From: Solirubrobacterales bacterium | Lineage (GTDB): Bacteria > Actinomycetota > Thermoleophilia > Solirubrobacterales > 70-9 | Length of the DNA: 64,000 nucleotides | NCBI GenBank assembly: GCA_035995325.1 | Contig: DASYKN010000055.1 | Coordinates: forward strand, 13,753-77,752 | Direction: 5' to 3' | Shown here: positions 6,959 to 37,208 of the stretch, in pieces | Numbering within the stretch: the stretch's first letter is position 1 | Layout: each line of letters starts with the position of its first letter | Program-made: the position numbers and the translations under genes | The notes under the pieces: generated by a model | Seen by the model: only the letters and a program-made list of their open reading frames with translations | What the model was told of the DNA's origin: nothing | Database searches by the model: none

Positions 6959-7429
6959 ATGTCCGCAAGTCCGAAGAGAGAGCTGATCCAGGGGCTGATC
7001 GCCGCCTTCCGCGCCAGCGGCAACCAGGACAGCGCCTTCGAAAACCTCGCCGCCGACCGGCTCGGGGTCAACCGCACCGACCTGCACTGCTTGAACGCGA
7101 TCGAGAACGCCGGCGGCCTCAGCGCCGGGCAGCTGGCGGCCGCGGTGGGATTGACCAGCGGCGCGGTGACCGGCGTCGTCGACCGGCTCGAGCGGTCCGG
7201 CTTCGCCCGCCGCGTCGCCGACCCCGCCGACCGCCGCCGCGTCAAGGTCGAGGTGACCCCCGAGTTCTACGCCCGCGCCGAGCGGATCTGGGGCCCGCTG
7301 GCGGCGGAGTGGGAGGCCTCCCTGGCCAGCCACTTCACCGCCGCCGAACTGGCCCGTGTGACCGAGTTCCTGCGCCTCACCAACGAGGTCGGCAAACGCC
7401 ACCTCGACCGCCTGGAGCGGGAGAGCTGA
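6959..7429 (+). CDS. MarR family transcriptional regulator
   Basis: Winged-helix region LSAGQLAAAVGLTSGAVTGVVDRLERSGFARRVADPADRRRV. Confidence 0.85.
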   Translation: MSASPKRELIQGLIAAFRASGNQDSAFENLAADRLGVNRTDLHCLNAIENAGGLSAGQLAAAVGLTSGAVTGVVDRLERSGFARRVADPADRRRVKVEVTPEFYARAERIWGPLAAEWEASLASHFTAAELARVTEFLRLTNEVGKRHLDRLERES

Positions 7430-7443
7430 AGCTGGACCGCTGC

Positions 7444-7704
7444 CTAGGCCTCCTCGAGCAGGACCAGCGTCTCGGGGCGGACGCCGTCGTTCTGCATCGC
7501 CGCCGCTGCCTCATCGGTCGCCAGCATCTCCTGCAGGGCAGAGATGTCGGGCACGTCGAGGATCAACCCGACCCGGTTTGAGCCTTTCTGGTCCTTGAAG
7601 GTCCGGACCGAGATCCCGGCCGGCCCGAAGAACTCATCCCGTTTGGGCGAGCTGAGCCACCTGTCGACATCGTCCACCTCGTGAACAACAAGCACCGTTG
7701 GCAT
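7444..7704 (-). CDS. Small hypothetical protein (86 aa)
   Basis: ATG at 7704 (MPTVLVVHEV...) within ORF 7444..7767. Coding-like composition. No domain recognised. Confidence 0.5.
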   Translation of the reverse strand: MPTVLVVHEVDDVDRWLSSPKRDEFFGPAGISVRTFKDQKGSNRVGLILDVPDISALQEMLATDEAAAAMQNDGVRPETLVLLEEA

Positions 7705-7844
7705 CGTCTTTTGTCTCCCTTTTCGGCGGGAACCCACCCGCGCTGACGTTGGTTGGATGGGGAGCATCTCACCCCCGGTCGAAGCGCTCGTCCTATCGAG
7801 CGAATCAGCGGCGCCAGCGTCGCGGGCGCAGTACCGTCAGCTCG

Positions 7845-8708
7845 ATGCGGATCGCCACCTGGAACGTGAACTCGGCCAAGCAACGGCTGCCGCGCTTGCT
7901 CCCGTGGCTGGACCAGCGCAACCCGGACGTGGTCTGCCTGCAGGAGACGAAGCTCGCCGACGAAGCGCTGCTCGTCCTGCTCGGCGACGAGCTGACGAGC
8001 CGCGGTTTCGAGGTCGCCGTGCATGGAGAGGCGAGCTGGAACGGCGTCGCGATCTTCTCGCGCGTCGGCTTGGAGGACGTCGTTCCGGGCCTCGCGGGCG
8101 CTCCCGGCTTCCCGCATCCGGAGGCGCGGGCGCTGGCGGCGACCTGCGGCGGCATCCGCGTTCACTCGGTCTACGTCCCCAACGGCCGCGAGCCGGGCTC
8201 CGACCACTACGAGTACAAGCTCGCCTGGCTGGCCGCGCTGCGCGAGGCGGTGGCCGCGGGCCCGGAGGCGGTGCTTGTCTGCGGCGACGTCAACATCGCC
8301 CCGGCCGACGCGGACGTCTTCGACCCGGCGGCCTACGCGGGGCAGACGCACGTGACGCCGCCGGAGCGCGCCGCCTTGGCGGAGCTGCAGGCGCTGGGGT
8401 TGCGCGATGTCGTCCGCGACCGCTGGCCGGGCGAGCGGGTCTTCAGCTACTGGGACTACCGGGCCGGGATGTTCCACCGCGACCTGGGGATGCGGATCGA
8501 CCTGGTCCTCGCCAGCGCCCCGGTCGCCGCCCGGGTGCGCGCGGCCTGGGTCGACCGCCTGGCGCGCAAAGGCAAGGGGCCGAGCGACCACGCGCCGGTC
8601 GTCGTCGACCTCGACGAGGCCCCCGACGGGGACATCGGCCCCGTGGTGCCGCCGCCCTCGGCGCCGGTCACGAAGCGCGGCGCGGCCAAGCTGCCGCAGT
8701 CGCCCTAG
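7845..8708 (+). CDS. xthA: Exodeoxyribonuclease III
   Basis: MRIATWNVNSAKQRLPRLLPWL...VVCLQETK ... PSDHAPVVVDL. Start at the ATG at 7845 inside ORF 7698..8708. Confidence 0.9.
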   Translation: MRIATWNVNSAKQRLPRLLPWLDQRNPDVVCLQETKLADEALLVLLGDELTSRGFEVAVHGEASWNGVAIFSRVGLEDVVPGLAGAPGFPHPEARALAATCGGIRVHSVYVPNGREPGSDHYEYKLAWLAALREAVAAGPEAVLVCGDVNIAPADADVFDPAAYAGQTHVTPPERAALAELQALGLRDVVRDRWPGERVFSYWDYRAGMFHRDLGMRIDLVLASAPVAARVRAAWVDRLARKGKGPSDHAPVVVDLDEAPDGDIGPVVPPPSAPVTKRGAAKLPQSP

Positions 8709-9763
8709 CTCGCGCCGCGCTCGCGCGAGGGCTGCACCCGCTTCGGCTCCCCCGGCATCTTCGGATAGGAGGGGGGATAGGGCATGTCGGCCTCCCCCTC
8801 GGCGGCATCGCGCTCGTAGAGGTCGAGCAGCGGCTGCAGCGAGTGGGCGACGTCGTCGATCGCGGCGTGCAGGTCTCCCTCGGCGGCGAAGCGAGCGGGA
8901 AGCGTGGCGACCGTGAACTCCCCCGGCGTAACGTCCGCAAGCTCCTCCCACCGCACCGGCGCCGAGACCGGCGCGCCCGGCTTCGGCCGCACGCTGTAGG
9001 CGGAGGCGATCGTGCGGTCGCGCGCGTTCTGGTTGTAGTCGACGAAGATCCGCTCGCCGCGCTCCTCCTTCCACCACTTCGTCGTCACCTCTCCGGGCAG
9101 GCGCCGCTCCAGCTCCCGCCCGAAGGCGATCGCCGCGTGGCGGACCTCCGTGAAGCTCCAGCGCGGCTCGATCCGCACGTAGATGTGGATGCCGCGGCCA
9201 CCCGACGTCTTCGGGAAGCCGGCGTAGCCAAGCTCCTCCAGCAGCGCCCGCGCCTCCGCCGCCACCCGCACCGCGTCGCCGAAGCCGGTGCCCTCCTGCG
9301 GGTCGAGGTCGAGCCGCAGCTCGTCGGGGTGGTCGACGTCCGCCGCGCGCACCGGCCAGGGATGGAAGGTGATCGTCCCCATCTGCGCCGCCCATGCCAC
9401 CGTGGCCAGCTCGGTCGGGCAGACCTCGTCGGCGTGCCGGCCCGAGGGAAAGTCGATCCGCGCCGTCCGCACCCACTCCGGCGCCCCCCGCGGGACCCGC
9501 TTCTGGAAGAACGCGTCGCCACCGCCTTTCTCCCTGGTCGAGACGACGGTCCCGGGGTGGACGCCCTTCGGCCAGCGCTCGAGCGTCGTCGGCCGTTGCC
9601 CCACCGCCCGCATGACCCCCTCTCCGACCGCGAGGTAGTACTTGACGATGTCGAGCTTGGTCAGCGCCGGCGTCAGCTCGGTGGCGGGGAAGATCACGCG
9701 GTCCGGGCTGCTGACCCGCACCTCGCGTCCCCCCGCGTCGACGACCTCGGCTTTAGCTGCCAT
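8705..9763 (-). CDS. Stand-alone LigD-type polymerase/primase domain protein (NHEJ)
   Basis: VRVSSPDRVIFP...TKLDIVKYY...FPKTSGGRGIHIYV...DYNQNARDRTIASAYSVR are LigD-Pol signatures. There is no ligase or nuclease domain in the ORF. Start at the ATG at 9763. Confidence 0.85.
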   Translation of the reverse strand: MAAKAEVVDAGGREVRVSSPDRVIFPATELTPALTKLDIVKYYLAVGEGVMRAVGQRPTTLERWPKGVHPGTVVSTREKGGGDAFFQKRVPRGAPEWVRTARIDFPSGRHADEVCPTELATVAWAAQMGTITFHPWPVRAADVDHPDELRLDLDPQEGTGFGDAVRVAAEARALLEELGYAGFPKTSGGRGIHIYVRIEPRWSFTEVRHAAIAFGRELERRLPGEVTTKWWKEERGERIFVDYNQNARDRTIASAYSVRPKPGAPVSAPVRWEELADVTPGEFTVATLPARFAAEGDLHAAIDDVAHSLQPLLDLYERDAAEGEADMPYPPSYPKMPGEPKRVQPSRERGAS

Positions 9764-15363: not shown

Positions 15364-16509
15364 GTGTCGATCAGAGCTACCTCCACGGACGAACTCGCCC
15401 GTCAGGTCGAGGCTAAGGTGGAACTGCCGTCGGGTGGCGCCATCGTCCCGGTGCCCGAGTTTGCCGCCGCCTCTTCCACCCCATGCGATTCCACCGATCT
15501 GCTGAGCTGGATGGGGTGGATGACGGCGGGGCCGCCCACCTTGGCGGCGGAGGTGCTCCGCAGCGCTGGCTACTGGGCGTGGGTTCGCTATCGATGGGCC
15601 TTGGAGGACGCACATGAAGTCGTCAGGCCGACCGCCGCCGCGCGATCGATAAGACAGCACACCCGCTCAATGTTTAGCGAGGCGGTCGGAGTCGGCACGG
15701 CTGGCTACGTCGGCTGCCTGCGCCTTGCCCCGTCGGGATCTTTGGCTGTGGTCAACTTGGACGACACGATTGACCCGCTGCTGACGAGCAGAGTCATCCG
15801 TCGGCGGTTCGGCTCAGGAAAGAGGCAACCCGACTATTTGATCATCGGGGGGCTTGACAGAGGCCGGGTGGAACTCCTAGCGATCGAGTGCAAAGGCACC
15901 GTCAAGAACGAGAGGACCGCGATCGGTCAGCTTGTTGCAGGAGTTCGGCAGGTCCTGGGGGTCGAATCCGACCTGCCCATGCGGAGGGTGGTCTTCGCCA
16001 CCTCGCTGGATCTCGATGAAAAGGAACCGGCCGTGAGGTGCCACGCAATCGAGGTCAAGGCCGAAGACAGATTCCAAGGCGGGCTCGATATCGAAGTTGC
16101 GCGTGAAGCGGTACGGGACGCCGCCTTGATCCGGGCGCTTCGCTGTGCCGGTCGCTACGACGATGCCGAGCGTACGCGCCAAGGCTATGTAGCGGACTGG
16201 TTCGAGCCCCAAGAGACCTTTCGCATCGCCGACAGGCCGATGGTCGGCCGGGGAGTCGAGCTCCTCTCCGTCGACGCCCACCTTCGGGCCGAGGTGGGTG
16301 TCGACCTTGAGCTCCTGCGAGCGCTGGCGGCTCCTCGATCTGAGCGACAGGCTCTTCTTGAGCCGCTGGAAGGTGAGATTCCAGATCAAGAGAGGGACCG
16401 GCGCATCGATAGTCCGGAGCGAGTCCAGCAGGAAACTCTGATGAGGGACGGCCTCGGCATCCGTTTCGAGCGGCGGGGCCGGGATTCCGGCGAAGAGAGA
16501 TTTCAGTAG
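15364..16509 (+). CDS. Hypothetical protein with a PD-(D/E)xK nuclease-like core
   Basis: GTG start preceded by a GAGGAG RBS. Motif KRQPDYLIIGG...VELLAIECKGT (D ... E-x-K). No other domain recognised. Confidence 0.6.
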   Translation: MSIRATSTDELARQVEAKVELPSGGAIVPVPEFAAASSTPCDSTDLLSWMGWMTAGPPTLAAEVLRSAGYWAWVRYRWALEDAHEVVRPTAAARSIRQHTRSMFSEAVGVGTAGYVGCLRLAPSGSLAVVNLDDTIDPLLTSRVIRRRFGSGKRQPDYLIIGGLDRGRVELLAIECKGTVKNERTAIGQLVAGVRQVLGVESDLPMRRVVFATSLDLDEKEPAVRCHAIEVKAEDRFQGGLDIEVAREAVRDAALIRALRCAGRYDDAERTRQGYVADWFEPQETFRIADRPMVGRGVELLSVDAHLRAEVGVDLELLRALAAPRSERQALLEPLEGEIPDQERDRRIDSPERVQQETLMRDGLGIRFERRGRDSGEERFQ

Positions 16510-16516
16510 GGACCTC

Positions 16517-17035
16517 TTGGCCGGCGCCGCCACCTACTTGGTTGAGTTCGACGGTGCGCTCGTCAGGCGCGGATTCTGGCTCTACGTACTTCAGGCCACC
16601 GTCCCGGACGGAGAGCAGTTTCTCTACGTAGGCAGGACGGGCGACAGTTCGTCCTTCAACGCGCAATCCGCCTACAACCGGCTCGGCAAACACCTTGGCG
16701 CCAACACCACGACGAACCAGATGCGCAGGCACCTGACGAAGAAGGAGTTAGAACCGGAGGCCTGCCTTTACCGCTTCGTTGCCTACGGGCCCGTCCTTGC
16801 AGAGGCAGCAACCAAAGACCAAGGCAGTCACTATCCGCTCCGGGACAAGGTGGCGGCGATGGAGAGGGAACTCGCAGTCCTACTAGAGAGAGCAGGCTAC
16901 TTGGTGCTCAACGAAGTCAGGTCAAAAAAATTGCTGGACGAGAACGCATTTCGACCCGTGGTCGCGGCCATCTCCGAGTACTTCCCCAAACTTGCCGAGT
17001 ACTGTTCTCCGCCGGAACAGGACGTGACTCTGTGA
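16517..17035 (+). CDS. Hypothetical protein with GIY-YIG nuclease-like motifs
   Basis: FWLYVLQ...EQFLYVGRTGD...YNRLGKH...MERELA...LNEV fits the GIY / YIG / R / E / N spacing. It starts 8 nt after the previous gene, so an operon is likely. Confidence 0.5.
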   Translation: MAGAATYLVEFDGALVRRGFWLYVLQATVPDGEQFLYVGRTGDSSSFNAQSAYNRLGKHLGANTTTNQMRRHLTKKELEPEACLYRFVAYGPVLAEAATKDQGSHYPLRDKVAAMERELAVLLERAGYLVLNEVRSKKLLDENAFRPVVAAISEYFPKLAEYCSPPEQDVTL

Positions 17036-27734: not shown

Positions 27735-29162
27735 CTAGCCCAGGGCGTCGCGGATCGGCGCGTCGGCCGGCGTGATCGCGATCAGCTTGCGATTGGCGAA
27801 CTCGAGGATCCCGAGGTGGGAGAGCTCGCGCCCGAAGCCGGAGCGCTTGGCTCCGCCGAAGGGAAGGGTCGGCTCCGAGGCGGTCGGGTGGTTCACGAAG
27901 ACCATCCCGGCCTCGAGCCGGTCGGCCACCGCCTGGGTGCGCTCGCCGTCGCTGCCGAACACCGCCCCGCCGAGCCCGTACTGCGAGCCGTTGGCGAGGG
28001 CGATCGCCTGCTCGTCCGACTCGACCCGGTACACGGCAGCCACCGGACCGAACAGCTCCTCGTGGTAGGCGCGCATCTCAGGGGTGACGTCGACCAGGAT
28101 CGTCGGCTCGACGAAGGCGCCCGGCCGGTCGATGCGGCGGCCGCCGGTCACCACGCCGGCGCCCTTCTCGATCGCCTCGTCGACCTGCTCGATCGCCAGC
28201 TCGGCCGCCCGCTCGGAGGAGAGCGGCGCCAGCGTCGTCCTCTCGTCGAACGGGTCGCCGGGTTCGAGCTCGGCCATCCGTTCGGCAAGGCCGTCGAGGA
28301 AGTCTTGGAAGACGTCGGCCATCACGATCATCCGCTTGGCGCTGGTGCAGACCTGGCCCATGTTGTGCATCCGCCCGACGAACGCCGCCTCCACGGTGCG
28401 CTCGAGGTTGGCGCCGTCGAGGACGATGAAGGGGTCGCTACCACCGAGCTCGAGCACCGCCTTCTTGACGGCGCGCCCGGCCTCCTCGCCCAAGGCGGAG
28501 CCGGCCCGGTCGCTGCCGGTCAGCGAGCAGCCCTGCACGAGCGGGCTCTCGACCATCCGCGCGATGTCCTCCACCTCGACGAAGACGTTGGTGAAGACGC
28601 CCTCGGGAGCACCGGCATCTGCGAACAGCGCCTCGATCGCCAGGGCGGATTGGGGCACGCTCCGCGCGTGCTTGAGCAGGATCGTGTTGCCGAGCACCAG
28701 ATTCGGGGCGCTGATCCGGATCGCCTGGTAGGCGGGGAAGTTCCAAGGCTGCACGGTCAGCAGGACCCCGAGCGGCTCGGTGCGGATGAGCGCCGAGCCC
28801 TCGTCGTCCATCTCCAGCGGCTGATCGGCGATCTGCGCCGGGCCCTTCTGCGCGTAGTACTCGAGGATTCGGATCGTCAGGTCCAACTCCGCCCGGCTAT
28901 GGCGGATCAGCTTCCCCATCTCGAGCGTAATCGTCCGCGCCAGCTCCTCGTAGTGCTTCCGCATCAGCAGCGCCGCGCGCCCGACGATCCCGGCCCGCTC
29001 CGCCGCCCCCCGTTCTCGCCACGGCCCCGACGCGCGCTGGGCCCGCTCCATGACCCGATCGATCTCCTCGCCGCGCAGCGACGGGAACTCCCGCACGACC
29101 TCGTTGGTGTACGGGTTGACGGTCGCGAAGCTGCTGCGGGCGCCTGCCTTGGTATGAGCCAT
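27735..29162 (-). CDS. NAD(P)-dependent aldehyde dehydrogenase (succinate-semialdehyde dehydrogenase-like)
   Basis: [22 protein letters not shown] (catalytic Cys) and EELFGPV motifs. Start at the ATG at 29162. Confidence 0.9.
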
Positions 29163-29213
29163 CGTCAGGGGCGTTGGTAGGCCACTCGCGCCGCCGGTCA
29201 ACCGCTGCGCCTC

Positions 29214-29777
29214 CTACGCCCGCAGCGCGGAGATGTCGATTCGCACCGCAACCTGCTCGCCGACCAGCAGCCCGCCGCCGACAAGCGACTGCTGCCAGGT
29301 GAGACCGAACTCGGTCCGGTCGATCGAGCCGCGGACCGCGACGCCGACGCGATCGTTGCCCCAGGGGTCGACGGCTGCGCCTTCGACGTTGGCCTCAACC
29401 TGGATCTCGCGGGTGACGTCCTTGATCGTCAGGTTGCCGGTGACCCGGTAGCTCCCGAGCACGACGTGCTCGATCGCGGTCGACTCGAACGTGATCGACG
29501 GCCAGCGCTCGGCGTCGAAGAAGTCCGGCCCCAGAAGGTGTTCATCGCGGTCGGCGTTGTTGGTGTCGATCGAGGCGACCTGGACGCTGCCCCAGACCCG
29601 CGAGTCGTGGTAGTCCTCGGCCGCCTCCAGCGTCCCCTCGTACTGTTTGAAGTGGCCGCGGACGGTGGAGATCATCATGTGCTTAACCTCGAAGCCGACG
29701 CTGGAGTGGATCGGGTCGACCCTCCAGGTACCGGTCGGCACCCGCACGATTCCCTGTTCGGTCTGCAGCTGGGTCAT
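29214..29777 (-). CDS. YceI family periplasmic polyisoprenoid-binding-like protein
   Basis: WRVDPIHSSVGFEVKHMMISTVRGHF...DTNNADRDEHL...LTIKDVTREI. Confidence 0.85.
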   Translation of the reverse strand: MTQLQTEQGIVRVPTGTWRVDPIHSSVGFEVKHMMISTVRGHFKQYEGTLEAAEDYHDSRVWGSVQVASIDTNNADRDEHLLGPDFFDAERWPSITFESTAIEHVVLGSYRVTGNLTIKDVTREIQVEANVEGAAVDPWGNDRVGVAVRGSIDRTEFGLTWQQSLVGGGLLVGEQVAVRIDISALRA

Positions 29778-29925
29778 TGGAGTTGCTCCTTGTCGGTTAG
29801 GTACTCGTACCGCCGTTCCGCAACGTCCCTCGCCGACCGGGGGCGACGCAAACGATCGCTGCGTAGGGCGCCCATGTTGCTTTTCCGGTAGGCCGCCGCG
29901 GCGCTTCTGTCAACGGGCGGAATCG

Positions 29926-30099
29926 ACGGGAATCGGCGTCAATCCCCGCATATCCAGGCCATTTCGGGAACTAGTTCCCGAAATGCGGGGATAGGAGGCG
30001 ATGGTTAAGTTTCCCCCTGGAGAGCGAAGCTGCCCGTTTGCAGGGGGTGTGGGTAAGTGGAGCTAGGCGGATTCGAACCGCCGACCTCCTGGGTGCGAT
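29926..30099. repeat. Repeat copy C: full flank F (132 nt) plus a 42-nt 3' fragment of tRNA-Ala(CGC)
   Basis: Near-identical by eye to 35919-36093. Contains the 24-bp perfect palindrome ATTTCGGGAACTAGTTCCCGAAAT at 29961-29984. Confidence 0.9.
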
Positions 30100-30198
30100 T
30101 CAAGGTGGCAGGCTAGGATTTCTACTTCAATAAAGCGCTTCTTTACAGGGAATTTCTAGTCCTATGCCGGGAGCATCGAGCGACGATTCTCGCGCCAA

Positions 30199-30261
30199 AT
30201 ATGCGCGGATATGCGGCGATGTGATCCGAGTCGGGAACTTCTAGCGAGAAGTTCCCGAAAT
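30199..30261. repeat. Conserved cassette-proximal block with an interrupted palindrome
   Basis: atatgcgcggatatgcggcgatgtgatccgagTCGGGAACTTctagcgagAAGTTCCCGAaat. This is the paralogue of 15020-15082. Confidence 0.85.
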
Positions 30262-30332
30262 CGCAGAGGCCGGTTCAAGACTTCCGAGCGGCCGGCGAGA
30301 GTCGACTCAGCCTGTCGCGCTCTTACGCATGA

Positions 30333-32690
30333 CTAAACAACGCCGTCGGACTCCCCGGTGAGCAGCCACTCCCGCAGGTCCACCAAGAAGGCGTAGTCCT
30401 CTTCGCTGATCGCGCCTCCGTGGGAGACTTCGTTTCGGATCGGGTTGAGACGCTTGATCCAGTCCAGGCGGTTTTTCCAGGTACCGGAGAGATCCTCGTC
30501 TTCGGGTCGCGTGTAGCGAGCGGCGAAGCGGCTTTCCCAGACCGCGTTGGTGCAGGACTTGATCACCTCGTAGTAGTCGACGATGTACATCATGTCCCAG
30601 CCGCCCACCTGTTCTGACGGGTCGAGGTCGAGGTTCTTCTCAATCGCCCGCTCGGCGCTCTCCTTGCGGACCTTGCGCGGGATCCCGAGGCGTTCCCAGT
30701 CTTTGCCGTGCTCGTCCTCGAGCCGCTCGCGGATGTCCTTCTTGAAGAAGGCCTCAAGGTCGCCGACGATCTCCCGGGCCTGGTTGGTGTACTGCTTGTC
30801 CTGGGCTTTTTCCCACTCATCGAGGCCCGGGGCTTTGAAGTTGGGCCGCGCCGCGCGCACCGCCTGCTGGAGCTTTCGATAGTACTTCGAGCCGGCGCCC
30901 GAGCCGTAGTTCGTGCGGTATTCGACGCCCTCCTCGCGGCTCAGCCCCTCGAGGTGGTCTACCAGCGAGTCCAGGTAGGGGCGACAGGCCTCGACCATTT
31001 CCCCGGTGCTGGTGCTGAGTGGATTAACTCCCTCGTCCTCGATCACGGTTTCGACGATGTCGCTGAGCACCCGCAGGAGCGCCTCAACCCCGTTATTCAT
31101 GAAGACGAAGCCGCCCTCGGCGCTGCCGTACTGCCATTGCGCGGGCAGCCCCTCTTTGAGGATCTCGAAGCTGGCCTCGAGGAACGGCGTTAGGAGGTCG
31201 GCGGTCGGCTGGTTGTCACCTGCGTAGAAGGTGCCCACCTTTTTCGCACCCGCTTTCGTGAAGCTGCCGATGAAGTTTCCGCGCCGCAGACCGTTGTCGA
31301 TCGCGTCGATCGTGATCGACCTCGTGTGCGTTTTGGCGTTCTCACCGATGATCATCCGGTCAAAGAGCGGCGAGGACTTCTGCTCGCCGAGGTGCTGGGC
31401 GATCCTCAGGCGCAGGGCCTTTGCGCGCTGGCGGTAGTCGTCTGAAGCCCAGAGCAGGTCCGAGTTCAGCGTGTTCCGCAGGTTCTTGGGAACCGCCTGC
31501 TGGTTCTCGTTGATCTGCATGAAGAGGCGAACCTGCTCCTCTCTCGGCAGGTCGACGAAGGCGACGACCGGGACCAGGTCGGTCTCGGTCCGGCTTGAGT
31601 CGGCGTACCCGTAGAGGCGATGCTGTCCGTCGATGACGTAGGCGGCCCGATAGGTCTGCGGCAGGTGCAGGAGCCCAATTTTCGAGGGCCCGGGCGATTT
31701 CGGAGCGAGGTCGAACTGCAGCCCACCTCTCCTTTTCCCGGTTTCGATGTTGAGGATGATCGAGTTCGGGAAGAAGCCACCCCCCTCGACGAACTCGGCG
31801 ACCTTTCTCAGGCGCGATTTCTTGATCAGCCGCTGATAGGTGGGCATCAGCGCGCTGTTGGCTTGGTTTCGGTGCAGCACGTAGGACATCTTCAGCAGGC
31901 GCGCGGGCTCGATCGCGAAGGAGAAGTAGGTGTAACCGCCCATCGAGCCGCGGATCGCCGGCACTTCCGGCTCGAGGTTCGGGATCCTCGTCCCGGCGAA
32001 CAACGCGCCGAGCAGCTGGTATTTCGCGGCGGCCCCCAGGTGCTCTGCCAGCCGCAGGTAGTACTCGACCGTGTCCTCGTCGACGTGGAAGATTTGGGCG
32101 CCCTCGACACGCTCTTTGACCTGCGCGGAGAGGGTGTAGTTGTTAGTCGCGAGCAGGAAGCGGATCTTGTGGTCGGGGTACTCTTCTTTAACCCGCCGGA
32201 CGATCCCCTGCCGCCGTCCCGAGATCGCCTCGACCTCCTTCTTGAACTGCCCGGGGCGGATCGTCTCAGAGGATTTGCACTCGATCAGCAGCACTGACTC
32301 CTCATCGGCCGCGAATACGTCGATTTGCTGCTTTGCGCTCGCCGCCGCCCCGTAGCTCAGCTTGAAAGAGCCGTCGCGATTCAGGTGCGGGAACTGCAGC
32401 TGCGCGCACATCGCCCAGACGCGGTCCTCGAAGGCTCGCTCGTGGCGCTTCTCGCGCCGCATTTTGGTCCGGATTTTCAGCTCCTTCTCGACAACCCAGC
32501 CGTCGGCTTCGTAGGCCTCGACCTTCGCCTTCGAAATCGTCTCGAAGGCGTGGGGCAGAAGCCGCTTCCGCGTCTCGCCTTTGATTTTGTTGAACGCCAG
32601 GAGGTGATCGCTGATTGCCTCCCCGGGAACCCAGATCGCCTTCGTCTCCGTTTTCGCGTTTGCCTCCGCTTCCGTCTCGGCCCTCGCCAT
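30333..32690 (-). CDS. Three-domain protein: N-terminal PD-(D/E)xK nuclease-like, central DGQHR (DndB/ParB-like) and C-terminal HEPN (Rx4H) domains
   Basis: QQIDVFAADEESVLLIECKSS (D...ExK). AYVIDGQHRLYGY and FMQINENQQAV (DGQHR/DndB signatures). C-terminal LNPIRNEVSHGG (HEPN R-x4-H). The start codon shares one base with the MTase stop (TGATG). Confidence 0.75.
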   Translation of the reverse strand: MARAETEAEANAKTETKAIWVPGEAISDHLLAFNKIKGETRKRLLPHAFETISKAKVEAYEADGWVVEKELKIRTKMRREKRHERAFEDRVWAMCAQLQFPHLNRDGSFKLSYGAAASAKQQIDVFAADEESVLLIECKSSETIRPGQFKKEVEAISGRRQGIVRRVKEEYPDHKIRFLLATNNYTLSAQVKERVEGAQIFHVDEDTVEYYLRLAEHLGAAAKYQLLGALFAGTRIPNLEPEVPAIRGSMGGYTYFSFAIEPARLLKMSYVLHRNQANSALMPTYQRLIKKSRLRKVAEFVEGGGFFPNSIILNIETGKRRGGLQFDLAPKSPGPSKIGLLHLPQTYRAAYVIDGQHRLYGYADSSRTETDLVPVVAFVDLPREEQVRLFMQINENQQAVPKNLRNTLNSDLLWASDDYRQRAKALRLRIAQHLGEQKSSPLFDRMIIGENAKTHTRSITIDAIDNGLRRGNFIGSFTKAGAKKVGTFYAGDNQPTADLLTPFLEASFEILKEGLPAQWQYGSAEGGFVFMNNGVEALLRVLSDIVETVIEDEGVNPLSTSTGEMVEACRPYLDSLVDHLEGLSREEGVEYRTNYGSGAGSKYYRKLQQAVRAARPNFKAPGLDEWEKAQDKQYTNQAREIVGDLEAFFKKDIRERLEDEHGKDWERLGIPRKVRKESAERAIEKNLDLDPSEQVGGWDMMYIVDYYEVIKSCTNAVWESRFAARYTRPEDEDLSGTWKNRLDWIKRLNPIRNEVSHGGAISEEDYAFLVDLREWLLTGESDGVV

Positions 32691-33532
32691 CAGCCGGCCG
32701 TCTCCAGGTTCGTGAAAAGAAGCTCTTTCGCGCTGCCCCGTATTGCGTTCGCTCCCCCCACCGAGTTGCGTCGGCTGGTCTTGATCACCGAGTCACCCTT
32801 GTCGAACAGCTCGATGATCGAGTCGTGCGCCGCGTTGGCGAGGATGTAGTGGGCGTCGCGCTCCTTGATCTCATCAACTAGCTTGCTGAGGCGGCGCTGG
32901 TCCTCAAAGGAAAAAAGCCGCTGGTTGTACTTCACGAATCCGTTTTCATTGTGGGCGACCGTGTAGGGGGGGTCGAGGAAGACCAAGTCCCCGGCGCCTA
33001 CCCGGTCGATGCACTTGGCGAAGTCGCTGGCTTTCAGGGTGGCCTGCTCCAGTCGAGAGGCCACCGCCCGCAGCTGCTCTGCGGTAGGGATGTGGGCGAT
33101 CCGCTCGCCGCCAAAGGGCACGTTGTAGGTCCCTGCCAGGTTGACGCGGTAGATGCCGTTGAACGAGGTGTGGTTCAGGTAGAGGAAGCGAGCGGCGCTC
33201 TCGATCAACCCGCCCGGAACCGATGCCCTGACCTTGTAGTAGGTCTCTTCATCGCGGGCGTACGCCCGGGCTTTGTTGGCGACCCGGGTCGGGTGATCCC
33301 TGATCGCCTCGAAGGCGGAGATCAGCTCCACGTTGGTATCGCTGAGGTGAGCTTTCGAGAACGGGCCCAGAGCCAGAAAAACCGAGGCGCCGCCCAGGAA
33401 GGGCTCGTGATAGGCGGCGATCTCGGTCTCGCCGACCAGCTTTCTTAGCTTCGGGATCAGCCACCGCTTGCCGCCGACCCACCGCAGCGGCGAGGCCACC
33501 GACGCAGTCGTCTCGCTCGCCCCCGTCGTCAC
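32690..33532 (-). CDS. Dam-like (D12 class) N6-adenine DNA methyltransferase
   Basis: PLRWVGGKRWL, HEPFLGGASVF (motif I) and VFLDPPYTV (motif IV, DPPY). GTG start at 33532 chosen inside ORF 32690..33637 (alternative at 33541). Confidence 0.85.
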   Translation of the reverse strand: MTTGASETTASVASPLRWVGGKRWLIPKLRKLVGETEIAAYHEPFLGGASVFLALGPFSKAHLSDTNVELISAFEAIRDHPTRVANKARAYARDEETYYKVRASVPGGLIESAARFLYLNHTSFNGIYRVNLAGTYNVPFGGERIAHIPTAEQLRAVASRLEQATLKASDFAKCIDRVGAGDLVFLDPPYTVAHNENGFVKYNQRLFSFEDQRRLSKLVDEIKERDAHYILANAAHDSIIELFDKGDSVIKTSRRNSVGGANAIRGSAKELLFTNLETAG

Positions 33533-33645
33533 CGGTGCAACCCTATCGTCGTGAGTTGTACGTCGTAAGTGCCGTCCATTACTCAGATGGAACCGCGTAC
33601 GTGGCAAACGCGGCCCCGGTGAGTGACAGGGAGGCACCGAGGATC

Positions 33646-33762
33646 ATCGACGGTCGTTGGCTGCTCGGCCCGCCGGCAGGCGATGGTGGGATGTCCGAGG
33701 TCTACCGTGCCACCGACATCGATCACGAGTACGGGCCGCTGGCGCTGAAGCTCCTGCCGGCC
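33646..33762 (+). pseudogene. Ser/Thr protein kinase N-terminal fragment (remnant)
   Basis: IDGRWLLGPPAGDGGMSEVYRATDIDHEYGPLALKLLPA resembles a Gly-rich loop plus the VAIK-type lysine region. No catalytic-loop motifs follow in any frame. Confidence 0.3.
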
Positions 33763-33929
33763 CCGCGTCAGGAGGGACCGGTGGGCGGTCAAGGAGCTGG
33801 TCGATGGGGTCTGCCACTTCGTCGAGCTCGCGGAGCCAGTCGACTAGGCCGAGCGGAGTGGTCGTCGCGGCCATCGCGACGCCTTCCGGGATGATCTGCC
33901 GTTAATTGGTTCATCCAAGGATGAAGACA

Positions 33930-34019
33930 AGGCATTCCGGCGTCAATCGTGAAGCCGTCTTTTGCGGGAGGCTTGAGTGGAGCTAGGCGGATTCGAACCG
34001 CCGACCTCCTGGGTGCGAT
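33930..34019. repeat. Repeat copy D: internally deleted flank F (about 48 nt) plus a 42-nt tRNA-Ala(CGC) 3' fragment
   Basis: ggcattccggcgtcaatcg...gaagccgtcttttgcgggaggcttgag followed by tggagctaggcggattcgaaccgccgacctcctgggtgcgat. Confidence 0.85.
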
Positions 34020-34231
34020 TCGGGTGGCGTCTAGGAACTTCCTCATCGCCCTGATGATCGGGCGCGACGACGATCCACTTCTAGCAACGCTGCCAGGGAT
34101 CGGACGCTGGTATGTGGACGTCGCTCGCCCGTGGGTCTGTTGAGACTTCCCGCAAACAGGGGGTCGTCCGCTCAGATCTAGATTATCCAGGCGCTACCTT
34201 TCGTCCTGTGACGAGGCTAAGATACGAACAT

Positions 34232-35137
34232 ATGTTCGATAAAGAGACGCTTGTGAGCACTAGGGAGCGCGCGGCGATACTCGCGCTGATGGCGCGGCGG
34301 AAAGTCGAGTGGAACCGTCTCGCCGGCGCCATCGAGGAGGCGGGAAGCGCCCTCGCCTTGCTCGGAAAGATGGACGCAAGTCAAGACGCCCGTCTGTTCG
34401 AGGTTGAAACAGCCCAGGTGACCCTGGATCAGCTCGAGGAACGCGTGATCTCCTACGAACACGAAGGCATCCGGCTGATAACCGTCCTCGATGCCAGCTA
34501 TCCGATGAATCTGCGGATGGTCCACGATCGGCCCCCGGCACTCTTTGTTCGAGGCGAGCTGAGTCCAGCCGACGAGCGCTCTGCAGCGGTGGTCGGCAGT
34601 CGCAAAGCCTCACCGGAGGGGCTCGAAAAGGCCTCCGAGATCGTGCGAGATCTCGTTGCCCATGACTACGTCGTCTTCAGTGGTCTTGCCGCTGGCATAG
34701 ATACCGCCGCTCATGAGGCCGCCTTGGCGGCGGGGGGGCGCACGGTGGCAGTCATCGGCACCGGCCTGCGACACCACTTCCCGAAGCAGAACGCGGATCT
34801 GCAGGATCGACTTTGCCGGGAGAGCGCGGTCGTTTCCCAGTTCTGGCCGGGTCAAGAACCGCGGCGCTGGACGTTTCCCCAGAGGAACGCCGTGATGTCT
34901 GGTCTGGCCCGCGCCACCATCGTCGTTGAGGCCGGTAACAAGAGTGGGGCGCGCATGCAGGCTCGGTTGGCGATCGAGCACGGACGACCTGTCTTCCTGC
35001 TGCGCTCGCTATTGCGCCATCAGTGGGCACAGACGTACGCCAGTGAGCGGCCCGGTACCTATGTCGTGGAGACGGGCGAAGAGATTTTGCGGCACCTTGA
35101 GCGGCTTTACGCCGACGAGCTCGTCCTCACCGCTTAA
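34232..35137 (+). CDS. DprA/Smf-like (SLOG superfamily) protein
   Basis: AVVGSRKASPEGLEKA...VVFSGLAAGIDTAAHEAAL...TVAVIGTGL...FPQRNAVMSGLARATIVVEAGNKSGA is the DprA Rossmann core. Start at the ATG at 34232. Confidence 0.8.
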   Translation: MFDKETLVSTRERAAILALMARRKVEWNRLAGAIEEAGSALALLGKMDASQDARLFEVETAQVTLDQLEERVISYEHEGIRLITVLDASYPMNLRMVHDRPPALFVRGELSPADERSAAVVGSRKASPEGLEKASEIVRDLVAHDYVVFSGLAAGIDTAAHEAALAAGGRTVAVIGTGLRHHFPKQNADLQDRLCRESAVVSQFWPGQEPRRWTFPQRNAVMSGLARATIVVEAGNKSGARMQARLAIEHGRPVFLLRSLLRHQWAQTYASERPGTYVVETGEEILRHLERLYADELVLTA

Positions 35138-35147
35138 TCTCTAGCCG

Positions 35148-35897
35148 ATGGCGGTTGGGGTCGATGAGGCCAGCGAGGCGTATGAGCGCGCGATGCGCAA
35201 CATTGCCACTGTCGGTCCAGGCATTTGCCGGATCTGCCGGACTTTCATAGATCCTGGATATGACACCTGCTACCCGTGCGGCTTTGAGCCCGACAACCTC
35301 GCTGCGGTGGTCCCGATCACCTACAGCGAGAACCTTGGACAGGTGCATACGGCGCTTCGCAACTACAAGGATGGCGAGAGCAACGCAATCCGCCGACATG
35401 CTGCCGTTCGGCTCGCGGCGATCCTCTGGCGCTTTCTCCGCGAGCACGAGGCCTGTGTTGCAGGTGCCGCAGGCGTGGACAAATTCGACCTCGTCACGAT
35501 CATCCCATCCAGCAGCCCACAGCGAGACGAGCACTCCGCCTTCCGTGAGTTGACCAGTTGGATCGAGCCCGCCAGCTCACGGATGCGCCGGACTCTGGAG
35601 CCGACTGGCAAGGTCGAAGAGAGAGGGTTTGATCCCGACCGTTTCAGTTCCACCACTGAGCTACCTGGCAAGTCTGTGCTGCTCCTTGACGATACCTGGA
35701 CTACTGGCGGCCATGCGCGGTCTGCCTCTTACTCTCTACTCGCAGCCGGTGCCGCCACCGTCTCGCTGGTAGTGGTCGGCCGCCATGTCAACGGTGACTA
35801 CGAACCAGCTAAAGGCAGTGGCGAGAGCTGCACCGATCTCCTCGATGCGCTTCCCGAGGACTTCGATTGGGCCACTTGCGCCGTTCACGCCACTTAG
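35148..35897 (+). CDS. ComF-like phosphoribosyltransferase-fold protein with an N-terminal zinc finger
   Basis: CRICRTFIDPGYDTCYPCG zinc finger. PRPP-loop-like VLLLDDTWTTGGHARSA. Starts 11 nt after the dprA-like stop. Confidence 0.75.
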   Translation: MAVGVDEASEAYERAMRNIATVGPGICRICRTFIDPGYDTCYPCGFEPDNLAAVVPITYSENLGQVHTALRNYKDGESNAIRRHAAVRLAAILWRFLREHEACVAGAAGVDKFDLVTIIPSSSPQRDEHSAFRELTSWIEPASSRMRRTLEPTGKVEERGFDPDRFSSTTELPGKSVLLLDDTWTTGGHARSASYSLLAAGAATVSLVVVGRHVNGDYEPAKGSGESCTDLLDALPEDFDWATCAVHAT

Positions 35898-35918
35898 CTC
35901 CGCCGCCCCCGAAAGCGA

Positions 35919-36051
35919 GGCGGAATCGGCGTCAATCCCCGCGTATCCAGGCCATTTCGGGAACTAGTTCCCGAAATGAGGGGGATAGGAGGCGATGGTT
36001 CAAGTTCCCCCTGGAGAGCGAAGTTGCCCGTTTGCAGGGGGTGTCGGTGAG
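35919..36051. repeat. Flank F copy E, directly abutting the 3' end of the intact tRNA-Ala(CGC)
   Basis: Near-identical by eye to 29926-30057. Palindrome ATTTCGGGAACTAGTTCCCGAAAT at 35954-35977. Confidence 0.9.
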
Positions 36052-36124
36052 TGGAGCTAGGCGGATTCGAACCGCCGACCTCCTGGGTGCGATCCAGGCG
36101 CTCTGCCAGCTGAGCTATAGCCCC
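36052..36124 (-). tRNA. tRNA-Ala (anticodon CGC)
   Basis: The reverse complement is GGGGCTATAGCTCAGCTGGCAGAGCGCCTGGATCGCACCCAGGAGGTCGGCGGTTCGAATCCGCCTAGCTCCA. It folds as a cloverleaf with a G3:U70 pair, anticodon loop AUCGCAC and a GTTCGAATC T-loop. Confidence 0.95.
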
Positions 36125-36209
36125 GAGGGCGTGGCTGGGAAGTTGATCCCACTGCCTCGCAAGCGGAAGGATAACCGCATAGTCTTTGCCAGCCTCCCGG
36201 GAACCGGCT

Positions 36210-37208
36210 ATGAGCATCCTCGACGACGCAATCCGTGAGCACCTGGAACTGAAGCGCGCCCATGGCGCGGATGACGTCGAGCTTAAAAAGCTCGAGGACG
36301 AGGCGTTTGGGCCGCCGGCCCGGCCCGATGAGCCAGATCCGTATGCCGAGGCCCCGACCGAGTTCCTGGTCGCCCCTGGCAGCGAGGACGCCTCTGGGGA
36401 GGACGACCAGGGCGGGCGTCGCGCCCCCAACATCACCGACTTGCAGGAGGCGCCCGCGCCTTCGCCGGAGCCCGCCGACGCTCCCGAGGCCGAGCAGGCA
36501 GCCGACGAGGAGCAGCCCGCCGCCGATCCCGACCCCATCGCCGACGCCGGCCACTCGACCGAGGAGCGGCACGCGATCGCCTCGCAGCCGACCGAAATCT
36601 TCGACGTCCAGGGCCAATTCGAGGACGCCGCCACCGAGGCCGACGCCCCCTCCGACGAGGAGCTTGCCGACGCCGAGCTGGCTGAGCCGCGCCTCGCCCC
36701 GGTCGACCCGATCGCCGGGATCGAGGCCTCCGCTGCTCCCTCCTCCGAGCCAGCCGCCGCCGAGGAGGAGCATGAGGACGAATTCGACGAGTTCTTCAGC
36801 GAGCAGCGCCTCTCCGACGAGCTGAACCAGGCGCTCGAGGCGCCGCTCCCGGACGAGCCCGGCGCCCCCGTGACCGAGGAAGCGACCGCCCTCTACGACG
36901 TGGTCGAGGCCGAGGAGGCCGAGATCGCCGACGAGACCGCGCCCCCGCTGGAGGAGGACTCGGCCGAGTACGAGATCGTCGAGAGCGACTCCGAGGAACA
37001 TGAGGTAGCCGACGAGGCTTCCGATGAATTCGAGACGGTCGAGGGCGATTCCAAGGACGAAGGCGAGGCGCCCGCCGCCTCCAGCCCGCCGCCCCCCGCG
37101 CACGAGGACGTGCTGGAGGACACCCCGCAGTTCCTCGAGGACGCGCCCGAGGACGACGAGCTTTGGTTCGAGCAGCGTCCCCCCAAGGACATCGACTTCG
37201 GCGACTAG
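36210..37208 (+). CDS. Highly acidic low-complexity protein (D/E/A/P-rich), function unknown
   Basis: ATG at 36210 (MSILDDAIREHLELKR...). The long acidic middle lies between structured-looking N- and C-termini (DELWFEQRPPKDIDFGD). The antisense ORF 36057..37262 is judged a shadow. Confidence 0.6.
   Translation: MSILDDAIREHLELKRAHGADDVELKKLEDEAFGPPARPDEPDPYAEAPTEFLVAPGSEDASGEDDQGGRRAPNITDLQEAPAPSPEPADAPEAEQAADEEQPAADPDPIADAGHSTEERHAIASQPTEIFDVQGQFEDAATEADAPSDEELADAELAEPRLAPVDPIAGIEASAAPSSEPAAAEEEHEDEFDEFFSEQRLSDELNQALEAPLPDEPGAPVTEEATALYDVVEAEEAEIADETAPPLEEDSAEYEIVESDSEEHEVADEASDEFETVEGDSKDEGEAPAASSPPPPAHEDVLEDTPQFLEDAPEDDELWFEQRPPKDIDFGD

Follow-up and report, generated by a model that had tools for sequence, protein, structure and literature searches.

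The window, a 64,000-nucleotide (nt) stretch of contig DASYKN010000055.1 from a Solirubrobacterales bacterium, harbors two intact, co-oriented genes that encode a DprA-family protein and a zinc-ribbon phosphoribosyltransferase (PRTase), with only 10 nt between the stop codon of the first and the ATG of the second (Table 1). Such an operon of adjacent DprA-like and PRTase genes is characteristic of ShosTA, a DprA-like antitoxin with a PRTase toxin that was found as a toxin–antitoxin pair and protects Escherichia coli against T7, lambda, and others (PMC9122126; bioRxiv 2022.05.11.491447). We consider it fairly probable that the two genes form a ShosTA-type toxin–antitoxin, or abortive-infection, module that is gated by LexA and is carried as the cargo of an integrase-less cassette in tRNA-Ala(CGC).

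The open reading frames (ORFs) and their translations agree with the positions and motifs quoted in a first-pass annotation made from the sequence alone. The DprA-like protein contains VVGSRKAS, SGLAAGIDTAAH, and FPQRNAVMSG, and the PRTase contains CRICR...CYPCG and LLLDDTWTTGGHA. An in-frame ATG at position 34112 was rejected as the start of the DprA-like gene, since homologues align from Met-1 at 34232 and the region upstream of 34232 exhibits promoter-type rather than coding-type conservation; the Joint Genome Institute gene call also starts at 34232. No second dprA-like or PRTase-like copy is found within the 64,000 nt, and no competence genes are found near the pair.

Table 1. Features of the gene pair, its cassette, and the LexA-type boxes of related phages. 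Coordinates are those of the window unless a phage locus (L086, L089, or L092) is given.
Feature	Coordinates	Strand	Description
shosA-like gene	34232-35137	+	301-aa DprA-family protein; N-terminal helical SAM-like domain and Rossmann/SLOG domain
PRTase gene	35148-35897	+	249 aa; N-terminal CxxC...CxxC zinc ribbon and type-I PRTase domain
Predicted LexA (SOS) box CGAACATATGTTCG	34225-34238		Palindrome centered on the ATG (34232-34234) and the presumed transcription start
Candidate promoter without a -35 hexamer	34203-34223	+	GTC 34203-34205, 12 nt, -10 element TAAGAT 34218-34223
tRNA-Ala(CGC), intact	36051-36124	-	ARAGORN; Rfam RF00005, 66.9 bits; target of integration, bounds the cassette array on the right
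51-nt copy of the 3' part of tRNA-Ala(CGC)	33974-34024		Left boundary of the ≈2-kb pair cassette; repeat family D3
26-bp perfect palindrome CATTTCGGGAACTAGTTCCCGAAATG	35959-35984		Between the PRTase stop codon and the tRNA-Ala 3' end; duplicated at 29966-29991
Phage Mana, predicted LexA box TACTGTATGCATAAACAGTA	L086 2205-2224		
Phage PhiBP82.2, predicted LexA box TACTGTATATTTGTACAGAC	L089 1186-1205		
Ralstonia phage YO009_3, predicted LexA box TACTGTACAAATATACAGGG	L092 231-250		

Family relationships of the two proteins

The DprA-like protein is recovered by the PADLOC ShosA profile (PDLC03961; E-value of 4e-68) and by Pfam DNA_processg_A (PF02481; 6.8e-62), and it also matches the PADLOC PsyrA profile (4.4e-33) and, as a secondary Pfam match, SLOG cluster 4 (3.7e-08). 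On the TIGR00732 dprA equivalog model it obtains 189.8 bits, just under the cut-off of 191.15, and is thus not classified as a competence DprA by score. Sequence matches in the PDB include Streptococcus pneumoniae DprA (3uqz; 2.6e-42) and ShosA (8zva; 2e-26). The AlphaFold2 model (predicted local distance difference test score, pLDDT, of 90.7) superposes over its full length on S. pneumoniae DprA (3uqz), Rhodopseudomonas palustris DprA (3maj), and E. coli ShosA (8zva) with template-modeling (TM) scores of 0.67 to 0.79, the value for 8zva being 0.72 over 307 columns, and reveals the SAM-plus-Rossmann fold of the ShosA/DprA-family antitoxins. ShosA does not bind ShosT; rather, its binding partners are single-stranded DNA (ssDNA) and RecA, and it counteracts damage (PMC11961720; PMC12961424). 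By analogy, the DprA-like protein of the window is predicted to be a ShosA-like, ssDNA/RecA-binding antitoxin, and the SLOG ligand-sensor role in the style of ThsA, which the first-pass annotation had put forward, is not expected.

The PRTase scores 16 bits against Pfam Pribosyltran, under the cut-off of 26.3. Its highly confident AlphaFold2 model (pLDDT of 95.4) displays a type-I PRTase fold behind a CxxC...CxxC ribbon, with 7p0h (Helicobacter pylori ComF) and 8zvb (E. coli ShosT) as the best fold matches (E-value of ≈5e-4, TM scores of 0.31 to 0.39); the top Foldseek match is ComF 7p0h (4.4e-4 over 214 columns), at a TM score of only 0.39. The loop expected to bind phosphoribosyl pyrophosphate (PRPP) is LLLDDTWTTGGH, which contains D181 and D182. 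Among 56 PRTase homologues, C27, C41, C44, H100, C103, D181, D182, and C244 are invariant, and C30 and H247 are nearly so (at least 90%); a second metal site could be built from H100, C103, C244, and H247. The PRPP-binding acidic pair is present, and D181/D182 in LLLDDTWTTGGH align to the LVIDDFCTEG segment of long ShosT. In ShosT, D331 and D332 are essential for toxicity (PMC11961720).

A four-Cys N-terminal zinc finger followed by a type-I PRTase domain is also the architecture of ComF. The ComF family models nevertheless fail on this protein, with 19.4 bits on TIGR00201 (cut-off of 233.55) and 22.2 bits on GntX NF008616 (cut-off of 304), only the PRPP loop being aligned, and the PRTase relatives from phages, a plasmid, and Streptomyces likewise fall far under the ComF cut-offs. 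Since the layout is kept and the models fail, the designation "ComF-like" given in the first-pass annotation describes the architecture (zinc ribbon plus PRTase, with 7p0h as the top fold match) and does not hold for the family (19 versus 233 bits). Judged from sequence comparisons, the PRTase represents a lineage distinct from the characterized ShosT toxins, with a ComF-like zinc ribbon where those toxins have the pyrophosphatase domain; zinc-ribbon PRTases as a group score 17 to 35 bits on the current ShosT models.

Distribution of the pair and its predicted LexA operator

To place the pair in context, we used an alignment-based scan of species-representative genomes, which yielded 80 loci; in 53 of these, a DprA-like gene lies directly upstream of the PRTase gene. 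These pairs are found across the Actinomycetota, including Solirubrobacterales, other Thermoleophilia, Streptomyces, Kitasatospora, Micromonospora, Actinomadura, Kribbella, Rhodococcus, Amycolatopsis, and Mycobacterium, and the closest relatives of the window are metagenome-assembled genomes of Solirubrobacterales; the window itself belongs to a 99.5-kb metagenome contig of soil type. Flanking genes are mostly unshared between pair loci. The pair adjoins an integrase in the Gordonia temperate phages Vasanti (gp30/gp29) and Bosnia (gp41/gp40) and a MobF relaxase on the Mycobacterium branderi plasmid pJCM12687. The order of a DprA-like gene followed by a PRTase gene recurs in the E. coli P2-like phage 10W, which encodes a long ShosT (PDLC03012; 3e-294), and in phages Mana, PhiBP82.2, and Riah, which encode short ShosT (141–151 bits). 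In the Salmonella P2-like phage SopEPhi (orf14-orf15; L091 687-2235), the PRTase gene comes first and the DprA-like gene second, and gene order is thus not fixed across the whole family. A scan of IMG/VR with the PRTase alignment returned one weak locus.

The pair therefore behaves as an accessory mobile module, not as competence genes. The first-pass annotation had anticipated a mobile, nucleotide-centered conflict module rather than competence machinery, and in this it was right: gene neighborhoods place the pair on islands, phages, and a plasmid with mostly unshared flanks. The system itself had already been published as ShosTA, which went unrecognized there.

In the remaining 27 of the 80 loci, two of which are truncated, no DprA-like gene was detected beside the PRTase gene, and the PRTases are 28 to 37% identical to that of the window. 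Most of the 23 such loci that were compared (a subset of L044–L083) are mutually syntenic; these ≈23 loci derive from Actinomycetes, encode PRTases 33 to 37% identical to the window protein, and share a syntenic context. In the reference locus L045 (9728-11317), a gene for endonuclease III (nth, HhH-GPD) directly follows the PRTase gene, which suggests a link of the partner-less PRTase to base-excision repair. The partner-less PRTase is probably a housekeeping paralogue.

The start codon of the DprA-like gene is covered by the 14-bp palindrome CGAACATATGTTCG. The LexA box consensus of Firmicutes and Actinobacteria is CGAACRNRYGTTYC, with the palindromic form tacGAACatatGTTCgta (PMC2248561), and CGAACATATGTTCG is a perfect match to this Gram-positive/actinobacterial (Cheo/SOS) consensus. 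Taken alone, the palindrome is unremarkable, as perfect palindromes of 14 bp or longer number 17 in the window versus 12.8 ± 3.6 in shuffled sequences, and there is one GAAC-N4-GTTC site versus 0.9 expected. Its significance derives from conservation across loci. Of 57 pair loci, 32 have an exact GAAC-N4-GTTC at the DprA-like start or no more than ≈75 nt upstream of it, where 0.07 would be expected from the background rate over 1.47 Mb of the same loci. The box is found at offsets of -6 to -72 from the start, and in distant clades it is kept but shifted (-8 to -72); phage Vasanti, for example, carries CGAACAAATGTTCG ≈30 nt upstream of gp30. The motif is absent near the PRTase start in all 27 loci where no DprA-like partner was detected. 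Furthermore, across 24 distinct promoters of the Solirubrobacterales type, the box is equally invariant in its coding and non-coding halves, whereas positions next to it vary. Other GAAC-N4-GTTC sites in the analyzed loci are mostly intragenic chance matches, and two better ones precede a HipA-like gene or ORFs of unknown function. A consensus box over the promoter that is kept in orthologous loci is the pattern of a LexA regulon, and on this basis CGAACATATGTTCG is predicted to be a LexA box and the operator of the pair.

Three betaproteobacterial P2-like phages carry a different box, the proteobacterial CTGT-N8-ACAG, just upstream of the DprA-like gene, with 16 to 17 of 20 consensus positions matched (Table 1). 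The Mana box falls inside an annotated 29-aa "hypothetical protein" (gp50) that is probably not a real gene. Since the operator follows the LexA specificity of the host while the proteins stay homologous, this pattern points to LexA rather than to autoregulation. The first-pass annotation had correctly located the palindrome over the start codon and viewed it as an operator; its suggestion of autoregulation gives way to the exact LexA consensus. A literature search found no publications that link ShosTA or DprA-like antitoxins with LexA or the SOS response. An SOS box over the DprA-like start implies that DNA damage or phage replication probably turns the pair on.

A promoter scan upstream of the DprA-like gene found no sigma-70 -35/-10 pair. 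With the -10 element TAAGAT ending 8 nt before the ATG and no Shine–Dalgarno sequence present, the mRNA is probably leaderless or nearly so. The spacing of the conserved GTC to this -10 element reproduces that of the mycobacterial PafBC hybrid promoter, in which a -26 element and a -10 element are combined as tGTCgg-N10-tAnnnT (PMC8635444). Seventeen related loci share GTC-N12-TAnnnT at an offset of -29; counted strictly, the motif occurs in 18 of 57 loci versus 0.25 expected, most of them from one clade, and four relatives carry ATC. TAnnnT hexamers 6 to 8 nt before the start recur across the family, and TCC.GTG and TAgAaT stand out as blocks of high information among the 24 distinct promoters. 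The M. branderi plasmid harbors a perfect tGTCgg-N10-TAAGGT (aTGTCGGtcggcggtccTAAGGT; L085 4000-4031), 7 nt before the DprA-like ATG and without a LexA box, which suggests that some family members may be under the control of PafBC alone. The resemblance of the -26 element of the window to the PafBC type is offered as a lead only.

The tRNA-Ala cassette array in the window

The cassette that carries the pair is bounded by copies of the 3' part of tRNA-Ala(CGC). The D3 direct repeat is present at 30054-30104, 33974-34024, and 36048-36098; the array-bounding repeat is a 175-nt unit (94–97% identical) that comprises a 46- to 51-nt tRNA-Ala 3' part plus ≈125 nt downstream of the tRNA, and is found at 29929-30104 and 35922-36098, and also at 33974-34024. 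The GC content at 30000-36000 is 58 to 65%, compared with 69 to 73% in the flanks. No integrase lies between the tRNA-fragment repeats in the window, no phage genes are found in the chromosomal cassette of the pair, and tRNA is the only Rfam family at 29000-37000. The 26-bp palindrome CATTTCGGGAACTAGTTCCCGAAATG, contained in each 175-nt copy (at 29966 and 35959), is possibly a bidirectional terminator or a recombination site; the terminator scan, which called no intrinsic terminator around the pair, missed it because a T-run is absent.

The neighboring two-gene cassette (30333-33637, minus strand) encodes a 785-aa DGQHR/DndB-like protein (TIGR03187, 1e-42; DpdB, 6e-18; a weak N-terminal Hjc-nuclease match) and a D12-class N6-adenine methylase. 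The start of the methylase gene overlaps the end of the DGQHR/DndB-like gene in an unusual restriction–modification-like arrangement. Repeats, GC content, and these two genes bear out the first-pass description of a low-GC cassette bounded by tRNA fragments beside nuclease/methylase cassettes.

The tRNA-Ala site of the window is shared by only two of the other loci, L009 and L021, where the pair lies ≈160 nt from the tRNA and the upstream cargo differs. Equivalent tRNA fragments bound the pair in L009, L021, and L012, the last of which places it in an island with a tyrosine integrase (15376-16635). In L009, from a related metagenome-assembled genome, the slot upstream of the pair (7114-8826) is occupied by a fused N6/N4 DNA methylase and Mrr-type endonuclease. 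The tRNA-Ala island of L009 is consistent with a variable defense hotspot.

A proposed ShosTA-type module weighed against its alternatives

ShosT is a PRPP-binding protein that perturbs purine metabolism and replication (PMC11961720; PMC12961424), and titration of ShosA by excess ssDNA has been proposed (PMC12961424). By analogy with ShosT, the PRTase of the window would be the toxin, whose PRPP-dependent activity would damage nucleotide metabolism and DNA replication; by analogy with ShosA, the DprA-like protein would be an indirect antitoxin that acts through RecA-dependent recombination without binding the toxin. Both genes would be expressed from one leaderless bicistronic mRNA. In an undamaged cell, LexA bound at the transcription and translation start would keep both genes low, and RecA–ssDNA filaments that arise from DNA damage, phage replication, or prophage induction would lead to LexA cleavage and turn the module on. 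The outcome would then be set by the availability of the DprA-like protein, which could either work freely with RecA or be titrated by an excess of foreign ssDNA. This proposal is anchored directly in the gene structure, the homologies, the conserved catalytic and metal ligands, the mobility of the pair, and the conserved LexA boxes; toxicity, antitoxin action, binding of LexA or PafBC, and an anti-phage effect are what we infer from the analogy.

Among known systems, E. coli ShosTA (APEC O1/P2-like prophage hotspot; 8zva, 8zvb, 9vzo, and 9w2p) shares with the window pair an operon in which the DprA-like gene precedes the PRTase gene, an acidic PRPP loop, and mobility. Its toxin differs in that it is 424 to 432 aa long with a pyrophosphatase-like N terminus, as opposed to 249 aa with a zinc ribbon, and only ≈45 to 85 residues around the PRPP loop align. 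The short-toxin ShosTA pairs of phages (Burkholderia Mana gp51/52, PhiBP82.2, Ralstonia YO009_3, and Pseudomonas Riah) likewise have a short PRTase (201–227 aa, single-domain) after the DprA-like gene and adjoin integrase/attP, and in three of the four a LexA box lies just ahead of the DprA-like gene. Their PRTases lack the zinc ribbon and score 141 to 151 bits on the ShosT model versus 35 for the window PRTase, and their LexA box is CTGT-N8-ACAG. DprA–ComFC (S. pneumoniae 3uqz; H. pylori 7p0h) exhibits both folds, including the zinc finger plus PRTase, and the motifs with which DprA binds ssDNA (GSR, GIDxxAH, and FPxRN) are kept; the window pair differs in failing the ComF model, in being mobile and predicted to be LexA-controlled, and in lying outside a competence context. 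PsyrTA/RqlHI shares the DprA-family antitoxin, but its toxin is RecQ/helicase-like, whereas the partner in the window is a PRTase with a match at the PRPP loop only. Finally, LexA-regulated toxin modules and prophage switches such as tisB/istR, the dinJ-yafQ class, and coliphage 186 tum resemble the pair in having an SOS box over the promoter and thus a response to RecA–ssDNA, although the proteins are unrelated.

Several observations weigh against the assignment to ShosTA. The DprA-like protein is about equally close to bona fide DprA and to E. coli ShosA. The PRTase match to the PADLOC ShosT model PDLC03962 is weak (2.2e-09, 35.5 bits, residues 78-216) when compared with 141 to 151 bits for the proteobacterial short toxins and 180 bits for the E. 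coli long toxin on the same model, and a syntenic, probably housekeeping, unpaired PRTase obtains 21.6 bits. Alignment by hhalign with short and long ShosT covers 44 PRPP-loop columns only, the PDB profile search returns ShosT at an E-value of 0.013 over 44 residues, and the long-ShosT model PDLC03012 does not match. At the sequence level, the PRPP loop is all that connects the PRTase with E. coli ShosT or H. pylori ComF. In addition, the N-terminal pyrophosphatase-like hydrolase domain of E. coli-type ShosT (residues 1-164) is absent, and the zinc ribbon is found there. Because homology to ShosT is weak, the case for a toxic PRTase draws on analogy and on the conserved pairing. As for the operator, no recognizable LexA box is present in 25 of 57 actinobacterial loci, in E. 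coli phage 10W (128 nt upstream), or in Pseudomonas phage Riah, and CGAACATATGTTCG was scored against the phylum consensus only. Lastly, joint induction of both components does not in itself account for toxin release.

The main alternative, which we regard as unlikely, is that the pair is a non-toxic, SOS-induced accessory for ssDNA handling or recombination: the DprA-like protein would load RecA and the zinc-ribbon PRTase would bind ssDNA as ComFC does, and mobile elements or the host would employ the pair in recombinational repair or in replication of the element. LexA boxes and PafBC-like promoters typify DNA-repair genes, the DprA-like protein comes close to a canonical DprA (189.8 versus 191.15 bits, with corresponding fold matches), the PRTase has the ComF architecture with ComF as its top fold match, and the closest partner-less PRTases are syntenic and lie directly upstream of nth. 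The probability that we grant this accessory role reflects a PRTase that is not specifically related to ShosT and a paralogue that adjoins nth. What favors the ShosTA-type module is that homologous pairs have been found experimentally to be toxin–antitoxin and anti-phage systems (PMC9122126; PMC11961720; PMC12961424), that the pair occupies defense-type positions (P2-like hotspots, integrase-proximal sites in actinophages, and islands beside restriction–modification genes), and that its distribution is patchy, with non-syntenic flanks.

It is improbable that the pair instead serves the phage or island, or acts in counter-defense, being expressed in the SOS response to aid replication of the element itself or manipulate RecA or the nucleotide pools of the host, rather than to protect the host. 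Carriage by temperate phages and LexA control, which would couple expression to prophage-inducing conditions, fit such a role, but the window pair resides in an integrase-less chromosomal cassette without phage genes, and related systems from P2 hotspots defend the lysogen against other phages (PMC9122126).

We also find it quite improbable that the palindrome serves as an operator for autoregulation, with the DprA-like protein or the toxin–antitoxin pair binding it in place of LexA. Many type II toxin–antitoxin operons are autoregulated via promoter-overlapping palindromes, which gives this idea a precedent, and ShosA does bind DNA (PMC11961720). However, ShosA and DprA bind ssDNA with no known sequence specificity, CGAACATATGTTCG is the exact LexA consensus of the phylum, and in Betaproteobacteria this position is taken by the proteobacterial LexA box while the DprA-like protein is still homologous. 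Finally, DprA and ComF families act jointly in natural transformation and the DprA-like protein nearly reaches the TIGR00732 cut-off, but that these are the housekeeping competence genes dprA and comFC of the host is very improbable given the ComF family score (19 versus 233 bits), the low-GC cassette bounded by tRNA fragments, flanks that are not conserved among relatives, the same pair on phages and a plasmid, and no competence genes nearby.

The ShosTA system is thus already known; what appears to be new is an actinobacterial subtype with a zinc-ribbon PRTase and an apparently unreported SOS-box wiring in two phyla. The trigger of ShosTA is debated between host transcription shut-off by T7 Gp0.7 and sensing of ssDNA/RecA. 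Phage escape mutants that map to SSB and primase-helicase (bioRxiv 2022.08.27.505566) back the latter proposal, and a predicted LexA operator, conserved in two phyla with the LexA motif particular to each, ties expression to RecA–ssDNA. Because current ShosT models barely detect the subtype, annotation in Actinomycetota, actinophages, and mycobacterial plasmids may miss it. More tentatively, it is possible that modules of a DprA-like protein and a PRTase sit in the DNA-damage regulons of several phyla (LexA and, in Actinobacteria, possibly PafBC) and stay silent until RecA–ssDNA arises, with SOS gating as a first sensing layer, and that the actinobacterial toxin is a ComF-like zinc-ribbon PRTase recruited independently. 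If so, the system would descend from, or repeatedly re-assemble, the DprA–ComFC pair that handles ssDNA in natural transformation; the ComF-like layout of the putative toxin suggests an evolutionary route from the transformation machinery to abortive infection.

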